A stretch of DNA of 29,950 bases. Source: Candidatus Cloacimonadota bacterium. GTDB lineage: Bacteria; Cloacimonadota; Cloacimonadia; Cloacimonadales; Cloacimonadaceae. This document shows, in pieces, positions 1 through 17,210 of this stretch. Every line of letters starts with the position of its first letter. Positions within the stretch are counted from its first letter, which is position 1. Location: assembly GCA_016875595.1 (NCBI GenBank), contig VGPI01000001.1, positions 1 through 29,950 of the forward strand. The letters run 5' to 3'. Under the pieces are notes generated by a model. The model did not search any database, was not told the origin of the DNA, and saw only the letters and a list, made by a program, of their open reading frames with translations. The position numbers and the translations under genes were made by a program.

Positions 1-2701
1 GGCGGGTGAGTGGGATCGCCTGTTCCAGTTGCTCGCGGTGGACTTCAAAGATCAGCTCATCATGCACCTGGAGGATCATTTTTATCCCGTCCATTCCGTC
101 GATCCGGCGATGGATATTGATCATGGCGATCTTGATCAGATCTGCGGCGGTACCCTGGATCGGCATATTGACGGCGATGCGTTCTGCCTCACTGCGCAGA
201 CGGCTATTCGAACTGGCAATGGCAGGCAGATAGAGACGCCTGCCGAAGAGGGTCTCGCTGTGGCGATGGATGCGGGCTTGGGCGATGCAATGATCGATAA
301 AACTGCGGATGCCGGGAATGCGCTGGAAGTAATTGGCAATGATCTGTTTTGCCTGGATCTGTGTGATGTCCAGTTCACGGGATAGTTTCACGGCGCCCAT
401 GCCGTACAGGATGCCGAAATTGATCACCTTTGCCTGTCGTCTTTCTTCGGGCGTGACTTGCTCCAGGGGCTTGCCGGCAATGTAGGCGGCGGTCTGACGA
501 TGAATATCGAGATCTTGGGCAAATGCCTCGAGCAGGACATGATCCCGGGACATCAAAGCCAGCAAACGCAATTCGATCTGGGAATAATCCGCTGCCAGGA
601 TGAGATGATCCGGATCGGAGGCGATGAAGGCACGGCGGATCTCTCTGCCGATATCGGTGCGGATGGGAATGTTCTGGAGGTTGGGATTGGAGGAGGAGAG
701 CCGTCCGGTGGAGGCGATGGTCTGATTGAAGGAGGAATGGATCCTGCCGGTGTGGGGATTGGTCATGCGGGGAAGAGCGGATACGTAGGTGCCTTCCAGC
801 TTGGTCAGCTGCCGGTATTCGATCAGGAGATCGGCGATGGGATGAACGTCGCTGAGTTCTTCCAGGACGACAATATCGGTGGACATGCCGGTCTTGGTTT
901 TTTTCCGGACGGGCAGTTTGAGGTTTTCAAAGAGCAGTTTTGCCAGTTGCTGCGGGGAATTGAGGTTCAGTTCATAGCCGGCGGTCTGAAAGATCCTGCC
1001 GGTCAATTCCTTGAGGCGGAGATTGATCTGATGGGAGATGGCGCTGAGGACGGCAGGATCGATGCGGACGCCGGTTTCCTCCATTCTTTGCAGGACGGGG
1101 ATGAGGGGCAGGTCAATATTGTCATAGACCGGGGCGAGCCCCTGAAAATCAAGCTTGCGACGATAGATCGGATATAGCCGCCATACCGCCCAGGCGTCCT
1201 CCGCCGAATAACGGCAGGCAGCTTGCACGTCCACCAGGTCGAAAGTGAGCTGGTTTTTGCCTTTGCCGATCAGGTCGCTGATCGGGATCATGGCGTGGCT
1301 GAGTTCCTTCTGGGCACAGTTATCCAGCGAGTATTGATTGGTGCCGGGGTCGAGGATGTAGGCGGCGAGCATGGTGTCAAAGATGGGATTGGTCAGGATC
1401 ATGCCGTTGCGCCGGAGGACGATGAGATCATACTTGAGGTTGTGACCGAGCAGCAATTTACCGGCAAGAGCAGCCATCATCCCGGGGCGGAGATCTGCCA
1501 GCGGGACATTATCCACCATACCATGCGCCAGCGGAATGTACCAGGCATGGGTATCGCTGGTGCAGAAAGAGATCCCGACCAGATGAGCAGTGACGGGATC
1601 GGTGCTGTCGGTCTCGGTATCAATGCTGATGATGGGGGCATTATGCAACTCGGTGATCAGGACATCAAGATGAGCAGCGCTGACCAAGCGCGCTTCGAAT
1701 GGAGCGCTATGCGCAGGGGCGGTATCCCTAAGCGCCCTTTCAGTTTGGATCGCATCGTTCTGACCATCAAGATCGAAGATATCGGCTTGGGTCTCGGGGG
1801 CATCATTTTGTCCCGGAGGGGTCGGTTCAGGAGAATGACCAAGGGCAGCGAGCATCTTATGGAGGCGCTGCCGGAGGGAGGGGATCTCATACTCGGTCAG
1901 GAGATCCATGGCTCCGGCGAGATAACTCCGGTTAAACTCTGGTGGGATCAGGATTTCTACCGGCACCTGACGGCAGATGCATGCCAGATCCTGGGAGAGA
2001 TAGGCATCCTCACGGTGCGTGATCAGTTTTTCCCTTACTTTATCAGGTAATTGACCGAGGTTGGCATAGATATTATCGAGGGTCTGATATTGCGAGAGGA
2101 GGTTTTCTGCGGTCTTGGGTCCGATGCCTTTGACGCCGGGGATATTGTCAGAGGCATCGCCGATCAGGGCAAGATAATCTATGAACTGCTCGGGCGTAAT
2201 ACCGTATTTGCGAATCACTTCCTGGCGATCGATGGTCATGTTCTTCATCGGGTCAAACAGCGTAACGGCTTCTTCCACGATCTGGGAATAATCCTTGTCA
2301 CCAGTAACGATGACGATGCGATGATCCCTTTTGTAACGCTCTGCCAGCGTGGCAAGGACGTCATCGGCTTCATAGCCCTCCATCGCCACTTCCGGCACCT
2401 GGATGAGACGGAAGAATTCCATCACCGGCTCCACCTGAGAGATCAGGTCATCCGGCATAGGGGGGCGGTTGGCTTTGTAGAGTGCGCTGCGTTCGTGACG
2501 GAAGGTGGGTTCCTTGCGATCAAAGGAAATGATGATGTGGCGGGGTTCGAGTTTGTCCAAAAAATGGAGAAAGGAATTGACCACCCCAAAGATGGCACTG
2601 GTGTTCTGCCCTTTGCTATTGATCAGCGGATTGCGGATAAAGGCGTAGTAGGCACGGTAGAGTAAGGCGGTGCCGTCAATCAGGTAGAGCGTTTTGTCCA
2701 T
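1..2701 (-). CDS. polA: DNA polymerase I (3' end outside window)
   Basis: Manual minus-strand translation from ATG at 2701: MDKTLYLIDGTALLYRAYYAF (5'-3' exonuclease), ExoI IDTETD, ExoII GHNLKYD, ExoIII YSAED, motif B RRQAKVINFGILYGM, motif C QVHDEL. Start, ExoI and motif C were checked to share one frame. The plus-strand ORFs listed here are its antisense shadow. Confidence 0.97.
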   Translation of the reverse strand, partial: MDKTLYLIDGTALLYRAYYAFIRNPLINSKGQNTSAIFGVVNSFLHFLDKLEPRHIIISFDRKEPTFRHERSALYKANRPPMPDDLISQVEPVMEFFRLIQVPEVAMEGYEADDVLATLAERYKRDHRIVIVTGDKDYSQIVEEAVTLFDPMKNMTIDRQEVIRKYGITPEQFIDYLALIGDASDNIPGVKGIGPKTAENLLSQYQTLDNIYANLGQLPDKVREKLITHREDAYLSQDLACICRQVPVEILIPPEFNRSYLAGAMDLLTEYEIPSLRQRLHKMLAALGHSPEPTPPGQNDAPETQADIFDLDGQNDAIQTERALRDTAPAHSAPFEARLVSAAHLDVLITELHNAPIISIDTETDSTDPVTAHLVGISFCTSDTHAWYIPLAHGMVDNVPLADLRPGMMAALAGKLLLGHNLKYDLIVLRRNGMILTNPIFDTMLAAYILDPGTNQYSLDNCAQKELSHAMIPISDLIGKGKNQLTFDLVDVQAACRYSAEDAWAVWRLYPIYRRKLDFQGLAPVYDNIDLPLIPVLQRMEETGVRIDPAVLSAISHQINLRLKELTGRIFQTAGYELNLNSPQQLAKLLFENLKLPVRKKTKTGMSTDIVVLEELSDVHPIADLLIEYRQLTKLEGTYVSALPRMTNPHTGRIHSSFNQTIASTGRLSSSNPNLQNIPIRTDIGREIRRAFIASDPDHLILAADYSQIELRLLALMSRDHVLLEAFAQDLDIHRQTAAYIAGKPLEQVTPEERRQAKVINFGILYGMGAVKLSRELDITQIQAKQIIANYFQRIPGIRSFIDHCIAQARIHRHSETLFGRRLYLPAIASSNSRLRSEAERIAVNMPIQGTAADLIKIAMINIHRRIDGMDGIKMILQVHDELIFEVHREQLEQAIPLTR

Positions 2702-2717
2702 AATCTATTCTTCGCTT

Positions 2718-2744
2718 AGGGCGGTGAAGGAGACCGCCCCGACG
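2718..2744 (-). repeat. REP-like 27-nt hairpin, copy between nitroreductase and polA
   Basis: Minus strand CGTCGGGGCGGTCTCCTTCACCGCCCT, with stem GGGCGGT/ACCGCCC; 22/27 identical to the copy at 29042. Confidence 0.7.
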
Positions 2745-3638
2745 TTATTTTTTGCCGACCGTGGCGATGTAGATGACGAATTCCTCTTCGCCGTCCACGC
2801 CAATGACCGTGTTCATCTGTTCATCGAGGAAAGCGCCGATCATGCAGGCACCGCCTTTGATCGCCTCGGCAGCCAGATGCAGGTTTTGACCGATATGCCC
2901 GGCATCGAGATAGAGGTAGCGATAACTGCGCTGTCCGTAACGCCAGGCGGAACGGTAAGGGATCGCTGTCCAGATAAATACCACGGGTGCAGTGCGGAGC
3001 ATCTCCTGACGGAAACAGCCCTCATAAATGGCAGCGGCGATTTCCTCGCCTTTTGTGACAACGACGAGTTCATGGTTGATCGGGTGGTAATAGTACAGTC
3101 CCTTTTCCATGCCTTCAATGTTGTTTCCCAGAATAAAAGTCTCGAAAGGGTGACGAGCGCCGGCAGAGGGAACGTTGCGCAGGGTGATCTCCATCTTTTC
3201 GTTGCTGCGGTGATCGCGTACCCACTGCGTTGCCCAAAGCAGCCAGGACAACTCATCCGGAGAAATGGGAAGATCTGCATACTTACGCAAACTACGCCGC
3301 GTAGCAATGGCTTCCGCCAGGGTCAGGCGCGGCTTGATCACCTCACGCACATCGGGAAGGGCGATCACCTCGCCCTGGCGTGGTTTGACGGCGGCAGGGC
3401 GGTACAGGTCCTTTTCCTGATCGCTGGGCTCGGAATAGATATATCGGGTCAGGCGGACAAATTCAGCACCGATATACTCCGCCCGGGGTTGTTCATTCTC
3501 GATCTCCTGCAACAAGACCTTGAGATTGGCTTCATAGAAATCATACTCGTCAGCTGTGATCTCTGCTTCCTTGATGATCTGCTCACGGTCAAATCCGCGG
3601 TTCTTGTAGTACAGGTAACCAAATGTCTTGATATCCAT
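2745..3638 (-). CDS. SagB/ThcOx-family dehydrogenase (FMN nitroreductase fold) with N-terminal extension
   Basis: Motifs RRSLRKY, RNVPSAGARHPFE and YRYLYLDAGHIGQNLHLAA. Start moved to ATG 3638, which follows an AAGGAGG Shine-Dalgarno. Confidence 0.88.
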   Translation of the reverse strand: MDIKTFGYLYYKNRGFDREQIIKEAEITADEYDFYEANLKVLLQEIENEQPRAEYIGAEFVRLTRYIYSEPSDQEKDLYRPAAVKPRQGEVIALPDVREVIKPRLTLAEAIATRRSLRKYADLPISPDELSWLLWATQWVRDHRSNEKMEITLRNVPSAGARHPFETFILGNNIEGMEKGLYYYHPINHELVVVTKGEEIAAAIYEGCFRQEMLRTAPVVFIWTAIPYRSAWRYGQRSYRYLYLDAGHIGQNLHLAAEAIKGGACMIGAFLDEQMNTVIGVDGEEEFVIYIATVGKK

Positions 3639-3690
3639 GGGAGTACCTCCTTGCATCGGCTGAGTGCCATCCTCTCCGTCTGACTCAGCT

Positions 3691-3750
3691 TGTCAAATAT
3701 AAAAATCGCCGCGGGCAGTTTTCTGGGCATGCTACGGATATTTCTTGACT
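3691..3750. promoter_or_regulatory. Divergent promoter region, candidate -35 hexamers
   Basis: TTGACA on minus (3691-3696) and TTGACT on plus (3745-3750) between divergent genes; -10 elements are weak. Confidence 0.4.
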
Positions 3751-3793
3751 TAATCGCCGGATGGAGGACAGTGGCTTACCAAAGGAGCGAGAG

Positions 3794-4420
3794 ATGAAGA
3801 ACAGACGAATCCTATATCTGCTGCTCATTATGGCAGTAGCGATCATTCTGGCCGCCTGTGAATCCGGTGGCAAGATCAGGGTGATCAACCGCACCGACTA
3901 TCCAATGTATGCCTCAGTGGACCGGGAACAAACGATCGTTATCCCGGGCGATAGTGAGCATGTCTTTGAGATCGATACCGATACGCAGACCTTTTATAGC
4001 GGGGAGGTAAAGAAGCAAGCATGGTTGAAACTCATAGGGGAAACATATACGATATTCGATCATTTTGAAGAGGTTTATGTCGATTCCACCCAAATCACGG
4101 TGAGGGCAGGGAAGACACTAAATGTCTTTCTCGATGCCAATCGTGCCAGCGTCAAGATATTGAATAGCAGCGATCTGAACATTGTAAGGGCAGAGATCTA
4201 CCAGGACTTTGGGGCTTATGATCAGGTGGTGGGATTGCTGGAGAATATCGCTCCGGGAGAAGAACGGTTCCTGCGGGTGAATTATGCCACGCCCACTTCT
4301 CAGTTCTTCTATCGGGTAAGGATCATGGACGAGAACAACCTCGTGTATAACTATGGAGGAAATCAGACCATACTGACCGTGGGACAGCAATTCCTGGTCG
4401 TCTTTACCAGCGGTAAATGA
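3794..4420 (+). CDS. Hypothetical lipoprotein with two similar beta-rich domains
   Basis: AAGGAG SD then ATG 3794. Signal MKNRRILYLLLIMAVAIILAA-C with lipobox LAAC. ATGA overlap with the next gene. Confidence 0.85.
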   Translation: MKNRRILYLLLIMAVAIILAACESGGKIRVINRTDYPMYASVDREQTIVIPGDSEHVFEIDTDTQTFYSGEVKKQAWLKLIGETYTIFDHFEEVYVDSTQITVRAGKTLNVFLDANRASVKILNSSDLNIVRAEIYQDFGAYDQVVGLLENIAPGEERFLRVNYATPTSQFFYRVRIMDENNLVYNYGGNQTILTVGQQFLVVFTSGK

Positions 4421-5421
4421 AGCTCCGGCTGTTGTTTGACGTCGGCAGGGCTTATCCGACGCCATCTCGGCTAAAGGCGGCGGCGGGATCCTGGCTTGCC
4501 TATCGCCGGTCTTTGCTCCGGGGCAAGGCATGGCAACCCTTATATCCTCCGGTGTTGATGGTGGAACCGACTAATCTGTGCAATCTCCGCTGTCCCCTGT
4601 GTCCCAGCGGCAATGGTAACTTGAAGCGTCCACGGGGGATGATGGGCATGGCGCTTTTCCGACAATTGATCAATGAAGTGTATCGCCAGATCGGGATGCT
4701 CATCCTCTGGAATCAGGGTGAACCCTTTTTACATCCGGGGATCTGGCAGATGATCAATACTGCAGTGCAGCGTGATATGTACGTCCTCACCTCCACCAAT
4801 TTCAGTATGCCAATCGATCTGCAGCGCATTCTGGATAGCGGTCTTCATCATCTGATCGTGTCGATGGATGGGATATCTGGGGCTACATACGATCAATACC
4901 GGGTCAATGGCGATTTCGAGCTGGTGATGCGGAATATGCGTGATCTTGTCCAGCTGCGCGGACGCCGGCGTCATCCCTATGTCATCTGGCAGTTTATCGT
5001 GATGAAGCACAACGAGCATGAAGTGGCAGAGGTAAAACGCCTGGCAAAGGCGATCGGGGTTGACCGGCTGGAATTTAAGACCGCTCAGATATATCATCCT
5101 GAGGACATGCCCCGCTTTCTTCCGCAGGATGGCAGTTTTTCCCGCTATCATATAGAGAATGGGGAGTATCGGATCAAGGCAGAGCTTTTGAATCGCTGCC
5201 ATCGCTTATGGATGCAGCCGGTGGTGAATTGGGACGGTGAACTGGCGGTGTGTTGCTATGACAAAGACCTCTCGCTCCCGATTGGGAACGTCAGGGACAA
5301 GGGCTTTGGGGCTCTCTGGTTTGGAGATCGGATCAACGCCATCCGGCAACAGATCCTGAGCGACCGGAAGGTCTATCCGATATGCCGGAATTGCGGAGAA
5401 GGCATCAGCCGGCGGGTGTGA
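4417..5421 (+). CDS. Radical SAM protein with C-terminal SPASM/twitch-type Fe-S domain
   Basis: CNLRCPLC (CxxxCxxC), WNQGEPFL, and C-terminal C...WDGELAVCCYD...CRNC. Confidence 0.92.
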   Translation: MKLRLLFDVGRAYPTPSRLKAAAGSWLAYRRSLLRGKAWQPLYPPVLMVEPTNLCNLRCPLCPSGNGNLKRPRGMMGMALFRQLINEVYRQIGMLILWNQGEPFLHPGIWQMINTAVQRDMYVLTSTNFSMPIDLQRILDSGLHHLIVSMDGISGATYDQYRVNGDFELVMRNMRDLVQLRGRRRHPYVIWQFIVMKHNEHEVAEVKRLAKAIGVDRLEFKTAQIYHPEDMPRFLPQDGSFSRYHIENGEYRIKAELLNRCHRLWMQPVVNWDGELAVCCYDKDLSLPIGNVRDKGFGALWFGDRINAIRQQILSDRKVYPICRNCGEGISRRV

Positions 5422-9233: not shown

Positions 9234-9989
9234 TTATTGCTTATCCAGATTATTCTTCAGTAGTTGCGCCTCCGGCACATCCCGCAACGGCTTGGCGGGA
9301 CTGCCAACAACTATTTGAGCAGCGGGAACGTCACGCGTCACCACTGCTCCGGCAGCCACGGTGCCATCTTCCTCGATAGTTTTACCGGGAAGGATGGTAG
9401 CATGAACGCCGATCCTGCCACCACTTTTTATGGTTATACCTTTGAAGTGATTAAATCGTTCTTTGTCCCGTGCCATATAGTTATCATTGCTGGTGGCAAC
9501 GCACGGTGCCACAAAGCAATAGTCCTCCACAGTGGAATAGGCCGTGATATAACAATTGGTTTCAAACTTATTCCGTGAGCCGATACTCACAAAGTTCTCG
9601 ATGGTCACGTTCCTGCCGATGATATTGAGATCACCGATGTTCACATCTTCCCGGATGGTAGCCAGATCGGCGATCAGATTGCGTTCTCCGATTATTGCTT
9701 GCGCATAGATAACGACGTTGGTACCGATCTGGCAGGCGTCTCCAATCACCGTTGGCTTCAATTCTGCCGGCGGTTTGAAGATACTGCGCGGTGAGGACAA
9801 GGGCTTTTTTCCGATGATGGTGTTATCATCGATGCGCGTATAGGTCCCGATCCTGCTGTTTTCATAGATAATAACGTTGTTGGCGATGCTGACGTAGTCA
9901 CCGATTTCCACGCCGTCCATAATAACGACATTGAAGCCCAGCTTGACTTCCGTGCCGATCTTGACGCTTGGAGCGATATGCTGATTCAT
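9234..9989 (-). CDS. Hexapeptide-repeat (left-handed beta-helix) sugar N-acetyltransferase
   Basis: Repeated I/V-G-x-x-x-x-I hexapeptides, SNDNY, and terminal GAVVTRDVP...VGSPAK. GGGAGG SD before ATG 9989. The longer ORF-track start overlaps the xer gene. Confidence 0.9.
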   Translation of the reverse strand: MNQHIAPSVKIGTEVKLGFNVVIMDGVEIGDYVSIANNVIIYENSRIGTYTRIDDNTIIGKKPLSSPRSIFKPPAELKPTVIGDACQIGTNVVIYAQAIIGERNLIADLATIREDVNIGDLNIIGRNVTIENFVSIGSRNKFETNCYITAYSTVEDYCFVAPCVATSNDNYMARDKERFNHFKGITIKSGGRIGVHATILPGKTIEEDGTVAAGAVVTRDVPAAQIVVGSPAKPLRDVPEAQLLKNNLDKQ

Positions 9990-10064
9990 CAATTCCTCCC
10001 TGATAACGCCATTTTTTTCGTGACAATAAATCCTGCAAGCAAAATCTGTGTCCTGGTGACCCCA

Positions 10065-10973
10065 ATGAATATGCAGGAATTGATAGAAAAACACGCGCAG
10101 GCATTGCGCCTGGAGGGCAAGTCCAACCAGACGATCGACGGCTACCGGCTCGATCTGGAGCAGTGTTATACCTTCCTGACCAAGTATTGGGAAGATGGTA
10201 TGGTCAAAGTGGATGAGATCATTCCCTTCCAGATCCGGGACTGGCTGAGGCAGTTGCATGACAAGCCCGATTGCAACCGGTCACTTGCCCGTAAATTGGC
10301 ATCGTTGAAATCCTTCTTCCAGTATTGTAAACGGCAGGGGATCATCCAGGACAATCCTATAGACAAGATGCAACGTCCCAAATTTGAACAGAAACTGCCA
10401 CATTTCTTTACTGAGGAAGAGATCGAGGTGCTGCTCCGTATCCCTGATCCAGCCGACAAATATGGCATTCGCAATCGAGCGATCCTGGAATTGATCTATT
10501 CATCCGGACTCCGGATCGGAGAAGTGGGGGCATTGCGGCTCGGAGACATCGACCCCAAAAGGCAATTGGTCAAGGTCACCGGCAAAGGCAACAAGGAACG
10601 GATCATTCCGGTCGGATCAAACGCTCTCCAAGCCATTCGTGAATATCTGGACATCCGCAGCGAATTTGCTCCCGCCGACAATGAAAAGCACCTCTTTATC
10701 ACCCGCACCGGTCAGCCATTTGACAATAAACAGATCAACGTCATCCTCCAGCGTTACATCAGGTTGGTGGCACAGCAAAAAGGATATTCGCCACATACGC
10801 TCAGGCATAGTTTTGCCACCCACCTGTTACAACGCGGCGCAGACCTGAGAGCCATTCAGGAAATGCTGGGGCACGCCTCCCTCAGTACCACCGAGACCTA
10901 TACCCACGTTACCCTTGAAGACATTAAAGACGCTTACAAAAAAGGACATCCCAGATCGAAACAGGATAAGTAA
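10065..10973 (+). CDS. xerC: Tyrosine recombinase, XerC/XerD family
   Basis: Catalytic set: LYSSGLRIGE (R), GKGNKER (K), SPHTLRHSFATHLL (HxxR), LGHASLSTTETYTH (H, Y), plus an N-terminal SAM-like domain. Start is 10065 or 10071; xerC versus xerD is not resolved. Confidence 0.9.
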   Translation: MNMQELIEKHAQALRLEGKSNQTIDGYRLDLEQCYTFLTKYWEDGMVKVDEIIPFQIRDWLRQLHDKPDCNRSLARKLASLKSFFQYCKRQGIIQDNPIDKMQRPKFEQKLPHFFTEEEIEVLLRIPDPADKYGIRNRAILELIYSSGLRIGEVGALRLGDIDPKRQLVKVTGKGNKERIIPVGSNALQAIREYLDIRSEFAPADNEKHLFITRTGQPFDNKQINVILQRYIRLVAQQKGYSPHTLRHSFATHLLQRGADLRAIQEMLGHASLSTTETYTHVTLEDIKDAYKKGHPRSKQDK

Positions 10974-11768: not shown

Positions 11769-11797
11769 TTGACACATAACTAAGCTGAGTTTTACAG
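11769..11797 (+). promoter_or_regulatory. Sigma70-type promoter
   Basis: TTGACA (11769-11774), 17 nt, TACAGT (11792-11797); AAGGAG SD at 11833-11838. Confidence 0.65.
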
Positions 11798-11844
11798 TGC
11801 CCAGGCAAGGTACGAGATACTCACCCTAAGACAAGGAGTTTGAT

Positions 11845-12171
11845 ATGATAACAGCGGGATTGATCGCATTGTTACTGGTGTTGACATCTTTGGCGTTGAA
11901 TTACAAAAGCACCGGGCGTAGCACCTCTTTTCGTATCCTGAGATTAAGTGCCGGTCTGTATTTCACTCTACTGATCTCCATGCTCTTAAACGGATGCCAG
12001 ATTTTTGGCGGCAAATCGAGATCTGATGTCGTGTATGGTCCTCCCGAGTATTTTAACGGAGAGAAGACGGTGGAAAAGCCAGACACACTCAGCAAAAAGG
12101 CAGTGAAAGAAGAACCGGTGGGACCGATCGATCCGGTCATCTGCTATGGCCCTCCCTCGAGTTTTGAATAG
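11845..12171 (+). CDS. Small membrane/lipo-peptide with two YGPP motifs; candidate radical SAM substrate
   Basis: Two hydrophobic segments, the second ending in lipobox-like LNG-C (Cys51). DVVYGPPEYF (YGPP 12034-12045) and VICYGPPSSFE (YGPP 12145-12156). Promoter and SD present. Confidence 0.75.
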   Translation: MITAGLIALLLVLTSLALNYKSTGRSTSFRILRLSAGLYFTLLISMLLNGCQIFGGKSRSDVVYGPPEYFNGEKTVEKPDTLSKKAVKEEPVGPIDPVICYGPPSSFE

Positions 12172-12179
12172 GAGTCGCC

Positions 12180-13249
12180 ATCTCTCTGTTTGATCTGAAA
12201 TATACCCGCTCCCGACTGCAACTCAGCGCATTTTACCGGCAGTTTCAACTGCGCTTTCTCCAGACCGGCAGATATCCCCCCCAACCTATGTCCTGTGGGA
12301 CTGCACTCGCCGCTGTAACCTGAACTGTGAGCATTGCGGCGCTGCCAAAGAAAGATATGACCGGGAAATGGGCACCGATAAAGTGGTGAGTTTGATCAGT
12401 GAATTGGCTGTCCTGGGAGTAAGAACCTTTGCCGTGACCGGAGGGGAGCCCTTATTGAGAGAGGATCTGGCGCTGGTTTTACACCATGCCCGATCAGTAG
12501 GGATCAATACCGGCATCGCCACCAACGGGTTTTTGTTGGATGGATCGATGGCGCTTGCTCTGGCACAAGCCGGAGTATCTTCCGTCCAGATCAGCATTGA
12601 TGGCGACCGTGACCCGCATAACCGGATCAGACATAATGAATTAAGCTATGACCGGGCGGTCTCCGCCGCCAGAAATTGTCGGGAAGCCGGCATCGCCTTG
12701 ATCACGGTCGCCACGGTGGTCACCAAATCCAATATCGAAACACTGCCAACTCTTTTGAACACTTTACTTTCCGAAGGCATCAGGTATTGGAAGCTGATCC
12801 CTCTGATGCCGATTGGCAGAGCCGATAAGAGCGAACTCCAGATCGAACCAGCCACCCTGATCGCATTCCTGGAGTTTGTCCGGCAAGCCAGGCGCAGGAT
12901 CCGCATCCAGATCGGTGAAAACCTGCCCTATCTGGGTAAATATGACTCCCAAACAAGGAACCTTGTCACCTACTGTCCGGTAGGGATAACTGCCTGCTGT
13001 CTGGGAGTGGACGGCAAGATCCGGGGTTGTCCTGAGATGCCTGATTCCGCCGAGTTTTATGAGGGCAGTGTACTGGAGACCAACTTTGATACGATCTGGC
13101 AAAGGGGCTTCGTCAGATACCGTGAGGATCATCTCCGCCATCAGGATCACGACTGCGCCAAATGCTCTTGGTGGAACAGGTGCCGGGGTGGCTGCTGGGT
13201 GATGCGGACCGGGGAATGGCATTGCATTAAAAACTGGTTAATTTACTAA
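12180..13249 (+). pseudogene. Radical SAM/SPASM peptide-maturase-like gene, frameshifted in a C7 run (12276-12282); pseudogene, phase-variable or assembly error
   Basis: WDCTRRCNLNCEHCG lies in the frame of ORF 12368..13249 but upstream of its ATG, with no ATG/GTG/TTG back to the TGA at 12191. AGGAG SD (12170-12174) points to ATC 12180 in another frame. One extra C gives a 356-aa ORF. Also VTGGEPLLRED and SPASM C...CC...GCP...CAKC...CRGGC...C. Confidence 0.8.
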
Positions 13250-13322: not shown

Positions 13323-15200
13323 ATGAAAACGATCAAAATGATCATGAATATCACGATTTTTCTGGGAGTGCTGCTATCGTTTGGCGTCCTGACGGCTGAG
13401 CCGGTTAGAGATATCTATGTGACCGAGGATTTCAGCTCTACCACTTTTCCGCCACCCGGATGGACGATCAGTGCCCAAAACGGAAACTGGAGCAGATACA
13501 TCGGCAATAACGCCGGTGGCACATCTCCCGAAGCGCGCTTGACCTGGCAGCCGCAGTTTAACGGTCAATCCCAATTGATCTCTCCGCCACTCAATACTCT
13601 CGGACAGAATTCGGTTTTCCTCGAGTTCCGGCACTTCGTGGATCATTATACTACACCTTACACTGTGGGAGTGGCTACGCGTTCCAATAACGGCGCCTGG
13701 ACGACGGTCTGGTCGGTCAATCCCACCGGCAATATCGGTCCCCAACTGAGAACAATCGAGATCAATAACGCCGACATACAGTCCAATACCTTCCAATTTG
13801 CCTTCTTTTTCAGCGGGAATTCCTACAATATCGATGACTGGTACATTGATAATATCAAGCTCTACACCCCCTTCGAGTTTGATCTGGCTGTGGTTGGTGT
13901 CCCTGGAGCAGCACAACTGGTTCCCGGGGATGGTTTTTTCCCCACCTGTGTGATCAAGAATGTCGGGATCAATACGCTTACCGCCGCGGTCACGCTTTCC
14001 ACCTATCTTTGGGATGTATTGCTCACTAATGAGGAATATCCCGTCCCAATTGTAATGGCAGCCGGTCAGGAAGAGACATTCGTCTTTGCCGATCAGTACC
14101 TCGATGAACCGGACGAGATGTATCGCTTTAGCTTCTCAGTGACCTCACTGGAGGATGTGGAGGACGGCGACCCGACAAACAACACCATGGACAAATGGGT
14201 CAATACTTACACCACTCCCCGCCAGAATGTCCTGCTGGAGATCGGTACCGGCGGCTGGTGTCCATATTGTCCCGGTGCCGCCATGGGTGCGGATGATCTG
14301 GTAGCGATGGGATACAATGTGGCAGTGATCGAAAACCACAACGGCGATCCTTATGCCAATGACTATTCCAATTTCCGCAATACCTATTATGGCATCAGCG
14401 GATATCCCACTGCGATCTTTGACGGTGTCCTGAGATATGTGGGCGGCAGTAATACCCAGAGCATGTACAACAATTATCTGCCCCTCTTCCAACAGCGCAA
14501 TGCCATCAAAACACCGCTGTGGTTGGATATCTACGGCTATGTTTCCCGCGACACCTATACGATCGAGGTCTGGACGCAAAAACGCTCAAATCTGATCAAC
14601 GAAAACACCGTTCTCCATTTTTCCCTCACCGAATCTGAGATCCAATACAACTGGCAGGGACAGACGCATTTCAACTTTGTCAATCACATCATGCTTCCCG
14701 GCGTGGAAGGGACGCCAATGGACCTGTTCAACACTCCCGTGATGGATGTCCTGGTGACCGAACTCGTCCTGCCGATCCAAGCCCTATGGGTGCCCGAACA
14801 CTGCGAACTGGTCGCCTTTATCCAGGATATCGAGACCAAAGAGATCCTCCAGGCAACCAATGTAGCGCTCAATGATCTGGCTGAACCACCCGTTTCCATC
14901 CATGAAGATACCCACAGCCCGGCGATCAATAAACTCTCCGGCAATTTCCCCAATCCCTTCAACCCATCCACCACGATCTGCTTTGCCACCGACGGCAAGA
15001 ATCCAGTGGAGATCGTCATTTACGACCTGAAGGGACGTCAGGTGCGCAGCTTGAAACTGGATACCAGATCAGCCGGTGAACACACCCTCGTCTTTGACGG
15101 ACTGGACGACCAGGGCAACCTTCTGGCAAGCGGGATCTATTTCTACCGCATGAAATCCGGCGCCTATTCCAATACCAAAAAGATGATCCTGATGAAGTAG
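13323..15200 (+). CDS. Secreted Omp28-related protein with CxxC motif and C-terminal FlgD-Ig/T9SS-like sorting domain
   Basis: Signal peptide; LLEIGTGGWCPYCPG, ENHNGDPY, GYPTAIFDG and ELVAFIQD; C-terminal GNFPNPFNPSTTI...IYDLKGRQV...ASGIYFYRM...KKMILMK; GAGGTG SD. Confidence 0.88.
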   Translation: MKTIKMIMNITIFLGVLLSFGVLTAEPVRDIYVTEDFSSTTFPPPGWTISAQNGNWSRYIGNNAGGTSPEARLTWQPQFNGQSQLISPPLNTLGQNSVFLEFRHFVDHYTTPYTVGVATRSNNGAWTTVWSVNPTGNIGPQLRTIEINNADIQSNTFQFAFFFSGNSYNIDDWYIDNIKLYTPFEFDLAVVGVPGAAQLVPGDGFFPTCVIKNVGINTLTAAVTLSTYLWDVLLTNEEYPVPIVMAAGQEETFVFADQYLDEPDEMYRFSFSVTSLEDVEDGDPTNNTMDKWVNTYTTPRQNVLLEIGTGGWCPYCPGAAMGADDLVAMGYNVAVIENHNGDPYANDYSNFRNTYYGISGYPTAIFDGVLRYVGGSNTQSMYNNYLPLFQQRNAIKTPLWLDIYGYVSRDTYTIEVWTQKRSNLINENTVLHFSLTESEIQYNWQGQTHFNFVNHIMLPGVEGTPMDLFNTPVMDVLVTELVLPIQALWVPEHCELVAFIQDIETKEILQATNVALNDLAEPPVSIHEDTHSPAINKLSGNFPNPFNPSTTICFATDGKNPVEIVIYDLKGRQVRSLKLDTRSAGEHTLVFDGLDDQGNLLASGIYFYRMKSGAYSNTKKMILMK

Positions 15201-15938: not shown

Positions 15939-17210
15939 ATGCCGCTCCGCGTCCAGAATGTCCTGCCCCGTGGTCTCGCCGCTAAAAGCGGGATCCGGGC
16001 AGGAGAGCGGATCCTGGAAGTAAACGGCAGCGCCATCAACGACTTCTGGGACTTGCAATACTACACTTCGGACTTCGATTTGTCCCTAACTGTCCTCGGT
16101 GATGATGGCATGATCCGCAAGGTCAATATCCTCCGGTCACCCGGGAAGGCAGTGGGACTGGAGCCGGAACCCTACCGCTTTGCCCGGTGTCACAATCATT
16201 GTCTCTTTTGCTTTATCGATCAGATGCCGCCCGCTTTGCGCGAGGATCTGTATGCCAAGGATGATGACTATCTCTTTTCCTATGTCTTTGGCAATTATAT
16301 CTCGATGACAAACCTGACGTCCGCCGAATATCAGCGGGTCATCGATCAGCGCATCTCACCGCTTTACATATCGGTTCATGCCGCCGATCCCTTGTTACGC
16401 AGCCGTCTGATGGGCTACCGCAAGGAGTTTGACATTATCGAAAAACTGAAGTGGCTCTCAGAGTATGGGATCAGATTTCACACCCAGGTGGTCGTGGTTC
16501 CCGGCTGGAATGATGGCGAAGCGCTTACCGATACGATCCTGGCTCTGATCCAGCCGGATCTGAATGTCCTCTCGGTGGGGATCGTGCCCGTGGGGCTTAC
16601 CCGCCACCGGCAACACCTTCTGCCGATCGATCTGGTCACTGCGGATGTTGCGGAACGCACACTCGATCAGGTGGATACGATCAAATCCCGCCTGGAGATA
16701 CACAATATCTACTGTGCTGATGAATTGTATATCCTCGCCGGACGGGCGATCCCGGAAAGCGCTTATTACGATGACTTCTGCCAGATCGAGAATGGCATCG
16801 GAATGATGCGGATGATGCTGGAGAACTTCAAAGGAAAAAAACGCACCCTGATCAAGGAACTACGGAAAAAAGGCAAGGATATGGTGCTGATCACGGGAGT
16901 TTCGGCTGCCGGAGCGATCAACGATCTGGCACGGTATATCCAGGCGAAACTGGATCCGCTGAAGGTTAGAGTGAGCGTGGTGCAGAATGATTTTATGGGT
17001 CGGACGGTGACAGTGAGCGGGCTTTTGACCTACGCCGATATCATTGCCCAGGCGGAAGTCAGACCCGACGAGATCGCTCTGTTGCCCGGAAATATCTTCA
17101 ATTATGAGGGGATCACGCTGGATGGCTATTCCCAGATTGATCTCAAGCATCAGTGGAAGAGCGATATCGTATTGGTGGATTATCTGTTTGAGGATTGGGA
17201 TTGGCTCTGA
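15939..17210 (+). CDS. DUF512 protein (PDZ plus radical SAM-like Fe-S domain)
   Basis: N-terminal PDZ-like segment, CHNHCLFCFIDQMP, KDDDY, GNYISMTN, PLYISVH, QIENGIG and VTVSGLLT. Confidence 0.88.
   Translation: MPLRVQNVLPRGLAAKSGIRAGERILEVNGSAINDFWDLQYYTSDFDLSLTVLGDDGMIRKVNILRSPGKAVGLEPEPYRFARCHNHCLFCFIDQMPPALREDLYAKDDDYLFSYVFGNYISMTNLTSAEYQRVIDQRISPLYISVHAADPLLRSRLMGYRKEFDIIEKLKWLSEYGIRFHTQVVVVPGWNDGEALTDTILALIQPDLNVLSVGIVPVGLTRHRQHLLPIDLVTADVAERTLDQVDTIKSRLEIHNIYCADELYILAGRAIPESAYYDDFCQIENGIGMMRMMLENFKGKKRTLIKELRKKGKDMVLITGVSAAGAINDLARYIQAKLDPLKVRVSVVQNDFMGRTVTVSGLLTYADIIAQAEVRPDEIALLPGNIFNYEGITLDGYSQIDLKHQWKSDIVLVDYLFEDWDWL

Follow-up and report, generated by a model that had tools for sequence, protein, structure and literature searches.

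The locus described here lies in the first 29,950 nucleotides of contig VGPI01000001.1 (assembly GCA_016875595.1), which belongs to a 2.0-Mb metagenome-assembled genome (MAG) of a Candidatus Cloacimonadota bacterium; this whole stretch is referred to below as the window. Between positions 11,769 and 13,249 it carries two genes on the plus strand, one for a small membrane protein (P0001) with two copies of a Tyr-Gly-Pro-Pro (YGPP) motif and, directly behind it, one for a radical S-adenosylmethionine (radical SAM) enzyme with a SPASM region. Genes of these two kinds are found side by side across a clade that spans bacteria and archaea, and it is probable that they constitute a two-gene protein-modification cassette in which the radical SAM/SPASM enzyme modifies the Tyr motif of its partner in the cytoplasm before the partner is exported. 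The features of the locus are as follows.

11769–11798, plus strand: promoter-like TTGACA-18 nt-TACAGT, 10 of 12 consensus positions matched (a consensus match only).
11833–11838, plus strand: Shine-Dalgarno-like AAGGAG, 6 nt 5' of the ATG (sequence inspection).
11845–12171, plus strand: gene of the partner and putative substrate, P0001, a two-helix membrane protein of 108 aa with a hydrophilic tail (open reading frame and translation).
11845–11988, plus strand: predicted hairpin of P0001, with helix 1 (residues 1–20), a basic loop (residues 21–30, charges +3/-0) and helix 2 (residues 31–48), from hydropathy and charge count.
11986–11997, plus strand: lipobox-like L-N-G-C (Cys51) at the end of the helix 2 region (sequence inspection).
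12028–12054, plus strand: motif 1, V-V-Y-G-P-P-E-Y-F (Tyr64), which fits the clade consensus h-x-Y-[GAM]-P-[PG]-[PE].
12136–12165, plus strand: motif 2, V-I-C-Y-G-P-P-S-S-F (Tyr101), close to the C-terminus (sequence inspection).
12180–12281, plus strand: N-terminal part of the radical SAM gene, frame 0, without a canonical start; aligns with the conserved N-terminal ~38 residues of orthologs.
12276–12282, plus strand: C7 homopolymer with a 1-nt deletion (comparison with ortholog frames, metagenome contigs).
12284–13249, plus strand: main part of the radical SAM/SPASM gene, 321 codons and stop (TIGR04133 and Pfam profile matches, AlphaFold2 (AF2) model).
12314–12337, plus strand: CX3CX2C, the motif of the radical SAM [4Fe-4S] cluster (sequence; invariant in alignments A1 and A2).
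12974–13225, plus strand: SPASM region C-x6-CC...G-x4-C ... C-x2-C-x5-C-x3-C ... C, ligands of auxiliary clusters (sequence).

The partner gene is largely as an initial annotation, made from the sequence of the window, had described it. The protein of 108 aa, its two hydrophobic segments, the LNG-C at residue 51 and the YGPP motifs at residues 64–67 and 101–104 (Tyr codons 12034–12036 and 12145–12147) were all found. One detail had to be amended, as the spacer of the promoter-like element is 18 nt rather than 17 nt. The tail, which is indeed charged and hydrophilic, comprises 57 aa. The C-terminal ending around motif 2 is the same in two Cloacimonadota orthologs (loci L009 and L012), and a similar motif is present in a third (L010), to which P0001 is 38% identical over its full length, helix 1 included (E 3e-17). 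The motif is rare. In a six-frame translation of the whole MAG only four open reading frames (ORFs) contain YGPP, and P0001 is the sole ORF with two h-x-Y-G-x-P motifs (h, hydrophobic). The other three YGPP ORFs were rejected as substrates: one is a Walker-A AAA+ site, one is likely an outer-membrane barrel, and the third is a dubious ORF of 73 aa. The strict motif occurs 3 times in 4.03 million six-frame residues, the chance expectation is about 0.012 per locus flank, and a chance origin of the motif pair in P0001 is excluded.

The initial annotation proposed that enzyme and partner are paired and that homologous enzymes have YGxP-bearing neighbors, and this is borne out in every clade locus that could be assessed: a small membrane protein with the motif adjoins the enzyme gene in all loci with usable flanks (about 37). 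Besides Cloacimonadota, the clade occurs in MAGs of Chloroflexota/Anaerolineae, Patescibacteria, Omnitrophota, Methanobacteriota and Methanosarcinales, in metagenome contigs and, by the names given in the source records, in DPANN archaea. Sequences that are 43% or more identical to the window enzyme make up over 120 clusters at the 90% identity level. Across this clade the partner motif can be written as h-x-Y-[G/A/M]-P-[P/G], and it is predicted to lie on the outer side of the membrane. Within the family of the host an enzyme ortholog was detected in 3 of 36 genomes, and in neither of two genomes of the same genus. The YGPP protein adjoins the enzyme in all three Cloacimonadota orthologs, either upstream or downstream of it; the downstream position is seen in one Cloacimonadota lineage, and another has two partner paralogs that together hold six motif-like Tyr-Gly sites, three of them full YGPP.

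No third gene shares this conservation. An all-against-all comparison of the flanks of 40 loci returned the enzyme and three types of partner only, and in the same flanks neither a protease nor an exporter is conserved near the enzyme, in agreement with the initial annotation, which had noted that neither is adjacent in the window. The same annotation described the locus as a system resembling those for peptides that are made by the ribosome and modified after translation (RiPPs). This part needs correction, as the classical set of leader/core precursor, RiPP recognition element (RRE), leader protease and exporter was not found for the pair, which is not a classical RiPP.

The partners fall into three architectures, listed here with their hosts.

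Type a: two-helix hairpin with a basic loop, the motif 5–15 residues from the C-terminus; Chloroflexota, archaea and some members of the candidate phyla radiation (CPR).
Type b: signal peptide, motif and then a C-terminal helix whose tail is basic; CPR members other than those of type a.
Type c: hairpin and a long tail with 1–5 motifs; Cloacimonadota.

The Tyr motif, in 1 to 5 copies, is the only element common to the three architectures, and in the enzyme tree the subclades track the architecture of the partner. For types a and b the positive-inside rule, applied to the basic loop or the basic C-terminal tail, places the motif outside the cytoplasm. No family in Pfam or NCBIfam matches any of the partners. 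The hairpin itself is conserved in sequence (GL-x-LTF-x-x-PG in helices and loop, with L34 and G37 invariant in alignment A3), and a motif-free profile of it, cut six residues before the Tyr, was used for a search from the partner side against 1.84 billion representative proteins. The profile recovered 78 proteins at E<=0.001, P0001 among them (E 3.4e-5). Y[GAM]P[PGA] follows the hairpin in 42 of the 77 other clusters, and most of the remaining matches have Y-x-P variants or belong to a subfamily with C-Y-x-P and an additional C-terminal domain. In all three hairpin matches for which the locus was looked up, two of them from the variant subfamily, a radical SAM/SPASM gene lies at most two genes downstream. 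The motif is thus kept among homologs of the partner, and the partner belongs to a conserved family of two-helix hairpin membrane proteins.

Two variants of the hairpin proteins were noted in passing. In a sister subfamily (P0146, P0157, P0159, P0165, P0167, P0172–P0174, P0176, P0182, P0194, P0198 and P0199) h-x-C-Y-x-P after helix 2 is followed by a conserved basic C-terminal domain (...Y-R-K-x-L-x-K-K...L-P-x-D-V...), and these genes, too, precede a radical SAM/SPASM gene (loci L131–L135). At one of these loci (L134, on a contig of GCA_964490125.1, genes within 1–4731) the hairpin and radical SAM/SPASM genes come after genes for SufBD, cysteine desulfurase, NifU and a DUF1858 protein and before a small ferredoxin, an order which suggests co-expression with iron-sulfur (Fe-S) cluster assembly. 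Tandem-duplicated partners, with two hairpins per ORF and motif-bearing linkers, were seen in a Methanosarcinales locus (L023, 2486–2989) and in P0124, P0128 and P0154.

The enzyme belongs close to, but outside, a family that already has a curated model. The initial annotation named a pair of families, TIGR04133 and TIGR04134, and such an NCBIfam pair does exist; searches with both, as it proposed, gave TIGR04133 as the best NCBIfam match of the frameshift-mended window enzyme at 210.4 bits (209.3 bits in the genome search of the MAG), against a cut-off of 425, and no match to TIGR04134. For the latter, P0001 had no match at E<=1, the whole MAG none at E<=10 (cut-off 39.8 bits), and ten clade partners likewise none. 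Positive controls were run for both models. With TIGR04133, four enzymes encoded on metagenome contigs from gut, rumen and elsewhere scored 487–632 bits; their neighbors are Y-G-x-P lipoproteins, one of which, the partner at locus L107, scored 111.6 bits with TIGR04134. A quick maximum-likelihood tree, built from 103 enzymes, separates the 34 rows of the window clade from the 67 TIGR04133-like rows by a branch that is 1.07 long and has a Shimodaira-Hasegawa-like approximate likelihood ratio (SH-aLRT) of 96; one row, L014, with a branch length of 10, stems from a wrongly extracted ORF and was disregarded. The enzyme is a member of a sister clade of TIGR04133, outside its bona fide members.

Pfam Radical_SAM gives 91.5 bits with the enzyme, and PF13186 is present in homologs of the window enzyme. 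The SPASM Cys residues show no variation in alignment A1 and little or none in A2. The AF2 model of the 321-aa main part (predicted local distance difference test (pLDDT) 90.3) is in a Foldseek search nearest to the peptide maturases SkfB, SuiB, PqqE and CteB (template modeling (TM) score 0.68–0.80, identity 18–22%). A sequence search of solved structures gave remote matches only (BlsE, SkfB, MoaA). No RRE family of NCBIfam or Pfam matches the enzyme, which has only an N-terminal extension of ~38 aa. The second NCBIfam family of the window enzyme, TIGR04103, which we take to be the PlpX family, has a cut-off of 725 bits and scores 137.9, a value that the NirJ2, MftC and GDL-maturase models equal or exceed; for a Chloroflexota member of the clade the second-best family is MftC, at 157 bits. 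A role in cofactor synthesis of the NirJ/Ahb/PqqE/MftC kind was considered and rejected, since the scores of these models fall well short of that of TIGR04133 and very far short of the cut-offs set for them, and since the conserved neighbor is the motif-bearing protein and not a cofactor pathway. The closest family therefore is TIGR04133, and not the NirJ, Ahb or PqqE enzymes that the initial annotation had named as the finding that would speak against it.

The interpretation that we consider probable, modification of the Tyr motif by the neighboring enzyme, builds on the adjacency found from both search directions, the persistence of the motif across different anchors, the intact catalytic Cys motifs and the lack of a third gene. 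From these we infer that the motif is the substrate site. The enzyme, cytoplasmic and without an RRE, would recognize hydrophobic-x-Tyr-Gly/Ala/Met-Pro-Pro/Gly without a leader and would use the 5'-deoxyadenosyl radical to modify a Tyr-centered site at each copy of the motif. Modification would precede movement of the motif-bearing tail to the outer face of the cytoplasmic membrane, a timing that is suggested by the predicted topology and by the precedent of anaerobic sulfatase-maturating enzymes (anSMEs), and the modified motif would then be displayed on the outer face, close to the membrane. As for the chemistry, a Tyr-centered C-C or C-O cross-link is a tentative proposal, tyramine excision at X-Y-G of the type carried out by spliceases appears rather unlikely, and a reaction of some other kind could well be at work, if at somewhat less than even chances.

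A complex prediction for the intact ortholog pair of L010 scored 0.00, with a pLDDT of 26–28 for the partner, a result that is evidence neither way. Five points weigh against modification of the motif by the enzyme. First, a literature search returned no publication on TIGR04133-type or YGPP/radical SAM/SPASM pairs. Second, the motif is predicted to be extracytoplasmic and the enzyme has no export signal, and the order of modification followed by insertion is assumed. Third, the sequence conservation of the hairpin means that the partner could do more than carry a substrate site. Fourth, the Gly is replaced in several lineages (Y-A-P-P, Y-M-P-G or Y-M-A-G), which makes the definition of the site loose. 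Fifth, recoding would be needed for this MAG to produce the enzyme.

The last point concerns the present state of the cassette in this genome. No ATG, GTG or TTG is found in the N-terminal frame downstream of its upstream stop, and the candidates for a start are ATC at 12180, 5 nt after AGGAG, and CTG at 12186. The initial annotation had a radical SAM gene with a Cys-rich SPASM tail beginning 8 nt downstream of the partner gene; the gene is real, and the distance of 8 nt is true only for the non-canonical ATC. At 12170–12186 the stop codon TAG of the partner overlaps AGGAG, which is followed by 5 nt and the ATC. Were this ATC used, translation of the enzyme would begin at an uncommon, non-canonical codon in tight coupling with the partner gene. 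The second defect is a frame break. The N-terminal and main frames meet inside the C7 run at 12276–12282, at a place where orthologs read P-P-P-[S/R]-Y-V-L-W-D-C in a single frame through C-runs of 3–6, and eight Cs in the window would restore Y-P-P-P-T-Y-V-L-W-D-C. With no canonical start and a broken frame, gene callers deliver only an ORF of 293 aa from 12368 (P0002), which lacks the Fe-S motif. The C7 state is not an assembly slip, because the site is spanned without an indel by Logan contigs from four metagenome runs of lake water (X1, X3, X5 and X7), which differ from the window at four single-nucleotide polymorphism (SNP) positions elsewhere; the four runs may derive from related samples, and assembled contigs hide minority length variants. 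As the enzyme gene is disrupted, the partner is probably unmodified in this genome, and the cassette is probably switched off or decaying in this MAG, unless slippage at the C-run restores a little enzyme.

Whether this amounts to a recent pseudogene remnant without present function, whatever the family does elsewhere, is a question on which we consider the chances evenly balanced. There are two defects in the enzyme gene, and four runs, assembled independently and distinguishable by SNPs, all show the deletion. The enzyme, moreover, was found in neither of the same-genus genomes and was not found in 33 of the 36 same-family genomes. The segment 10962–13394, which lies directly after a tyrosine recombinase gene (9978–10973) and comprises a secreted YbjN-like ORF of 167 aa and the genes of partner and enzyme, is without a match in both same-genus genomes, where its flanks lie on different contigs with other neighbors. 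Having no counterpart in congeners, the cassette is accessory. Against decay, every residue that is invariant in the enzyme family is intact, as is the partner ORF. A C-tract is moreover a classic on/off switch, a -1 slip or transcript slippage would yield exactly PPP-T-Y-V-L-W, and minority length variants would be hidden in assembled contigs. The intact residues and the homopolymer site thus leave room for a reversible C7/C8 switch, which this may be.

A second alternative is that P0001 is a true lipoprotein, cleaved and lipidated at Cys51, so that the product would be a modified surface lipopeptide of 58 aa that reaches the surface by the lipoprotein pathway, as the initial annotation had it. 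We find this doubtful. The LNG-C does follow a hydrophobic segment with a basic stretch before it, a Cys after helix 2 is also present in L009, L012 and L010, and the sister family TIGR04134 consists of lipoproteins in which Y-G comes directly after the lipobox Cys. However, Asn is atypical at lipobox position -2, and the would-be signal peptide is preceded by an extra conserved N-terminal helix that aligns with the orthologs from the ATG on. The Cys, furthermore, is kept in some Cloacimonadota copies only and is absent from the paralogs of L011 and from all Chloroflexota, CPR and archaeal partners; with no conservation across the clade, export by the lipoprotein pathway is not the general logic of the system.

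A third alternative concerns the reaction itself, namely removal of a tyramine equivalent at X-Tyr-Gly in the manner of PlpX and RhaX. Splicing is established at X-Y-G, and the enzymes responsible are of the radical SAM/SPASM type and can act leaderless on proteins (PMC11414181, PMC11626197, PMC9811515). A survey of YG-rich neighbors of SPASM enzymes, as summarized in PMC10849128, gives 189 genera and 27 confirmed pairs. TIGR04103 is the second-best NCBIfam match of the window enzyme, Tyr-Gly is kept throughout TIGR04133 proper, and the window partner has both V-Y-G and C-Y-G. Other findings speak against splicing: the TIGR04103 score is far below its cut-off, with MftC taking second place for the Chloroflexota member, and in several lineages the variants given above replace Y-G. 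Spliceases have no described requirement for the Pro-Pro that is conserved here behind Y-G, and no Y-protein or RRE gene recurs in the loci, although no search was made for a leader helix. With an unremarkable TIGR04103 score and a variable Gly, the data presented here lend no specific support to splicing, which we regard as unlikely. It is tempting to speculate that splicing, or another rearrangement that destroys the Tyr, acts on a whole integral membrane protein, so that the outer face of the cytoplasmic membrane would bear a reactive ketoamide or else a cofactor-like group derived from Tyr. Such a conserved surface chemistry would be common to anaerobic bacteria, methanogens and the episymbionts among CPR and DPANN, and in this lake population of Cloacimonadota the poly-C tract would turn it on and off; the odds are well against so specific a combination.

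The remaining alternative, that the small protein is a membrane anchor, scaffold or regulator and that the true substrate is something else, such as a lipid, a cofactor or a different protein, would account for the conserved sequence of the hairpin helices and loop, for an enzyme without an RRE and for the prediction that the membrane lies between motif and enzyme, but it is improbable, as the hairpin is swapped in other partners for a signal peptide with a C-terminal helix or for a lipoprotein signal while the Tyr motif is always kept, as a copy number of 1 to 5 is what would be expected of modification sites, and as the enzyme fold is nearest to peptide maturases.

The window holds two further radical SAM genes on the plus strand. 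The gene at 4417–5421 encodes a second radical SAM/SPASM protein (PF04055 and PF13186) with weak likeness to the maturase of a tungsten-cofactor oxidoreductase (TIGR04317, 87 bits) and to rSAM_Geo_metal; the ORFs upstream of it, 2694–3683 and 3761–4420, have no NCBIfam match. The gene at 15939–17210 encodes a third, with PDZ, Radical_SAM_2 and DUF512 domains (TIGR03279, 295 bits against a cut-off of 575). Between the cassette and the latter, a plus-strand gene at 13323–15200 encodes a protein of 625 aa with a type IX secretion system (T9SS) C-terminal sorting domain, an Omp28-like region and a thioredoxin-like C-P-Y-C motif; it scores 76 bits with the 'Omp28-related selenoprotein' model (cut-off 200), and the site has Cys, not selenocysteine.

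If modification of the partner by its enzyme is correct, anaerobes would widely modify, after translation, a Tyr-Gly/Ala-Pro-Pro site in membrane-anchored proteins that face outward. This modification has never been studied, and its reach would extend from the TIGR04133/TIGR04134 systems to Chloroflexota, candidate-phyla bacteria, DPANN archaea and methanogens. The small partners of 65–90 aa, with their site 5–15 residues from the C-terminus, would be very tractable substrates for finding the chemistry. For this genome the break of the enzyme gene at a homopolymer has the practical consequence that annotation pipelines call a truncated protein without the Fe-S motif.

Among characterized systems there are three groups to which the cassette may be compared. 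SPASM-type radical SAM enzymes of the anSME kind modify a short motif of a full-length protein in the cytoplasm before export, which is the order of events proposed here. However, anSME and QhpD target Cys or Ser (formylglycine) or form Cys thioethers and do not act on a Tyr motif, and the anSME model TIGR03942 gives only 54.9 bits with the 293-aa ORF and, with the mended enzyme, ranks outside the top 25 families. The second group, PqqE/MftC, SuiB, SkfB and CteB, has in common with the window enzyme the fold (TM score 0.69–0.80 for SuiB, SkfB and PqqE), and its members carry out radical chemistry on aromatic residues of ribosomal peptides. It differs by its RRE or PqqD-type chaperone and its small soluble precursors, and the motifs differ as well, E-x3-Y in PqqA and a C-terminal V-Y in MftA. 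The nearest characterized chemistry is that of the tyramine spliceases, radical SAM/SPASM enzymes with X-Tyr-Gly sites. The spliceases PlpX/PlpY, PcpX, RhaX and RcsX, of the spliceotide RiPPs, act at X-Tyr-Gly, often at several sites per precursor, and can process whole proteins without a leader (PMC11414181, PMC11626197). Their substrates are Nif11/NHLP-type or small secreted precursors, whereas the putative window substrate is a membrane protein, and in the window clade the Gly is variable, the Pro-Pro is conserved and no specific sequence affinity to spliceases is seen.

The closest likeness of all is to TIGR04133 (rSAM_w_lipo) and TIGR04134 (lipo_with_rSAM), which are hypothetical equivalogs without experimental function. 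There, too, a radical SAM/SPASM enzyme of ~350 aa without an RRE has as its neighbor a small protein, exported or anchored in the membrane, in which a hydrophobic-Tyr-Gly-x-Pro site is present, in a two-gene logic with no protease or exporter. Among 69 loci of the TIGR04133-like set, 63 carry Y-G-x(0-2)-P in an adjacent ORF on the same strand, the partner typically being a lipoprotein with ...A-C-Y-G-T-P-Q-D... or a protein with repeated V-Y-G-S-P-E-I. Such neighbors indicate that the window pair is the same kind of system, on a separate branch and with a different partner family. Apart from the low TIGR04133 score of the enzyme and the long branch, the pairs differ in the partner: in TIGR04134 the Y-G comes right after the lipid-bearing Cys, whereas in the window Tyr64 is 13 residues after Cys51 and an extra N-terminal helix is present; the motif is Y-G-[T/S/V/M]-P in the former and Y-[G/A/M]-P-[P/G] in the window clade; and the window partner is a two-helix hairpin to which the TIGR04134 model does not extend. 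The window pair is a new branch of a known, uncharacterized kind of system, from a clade that is still without a curated model of its own.

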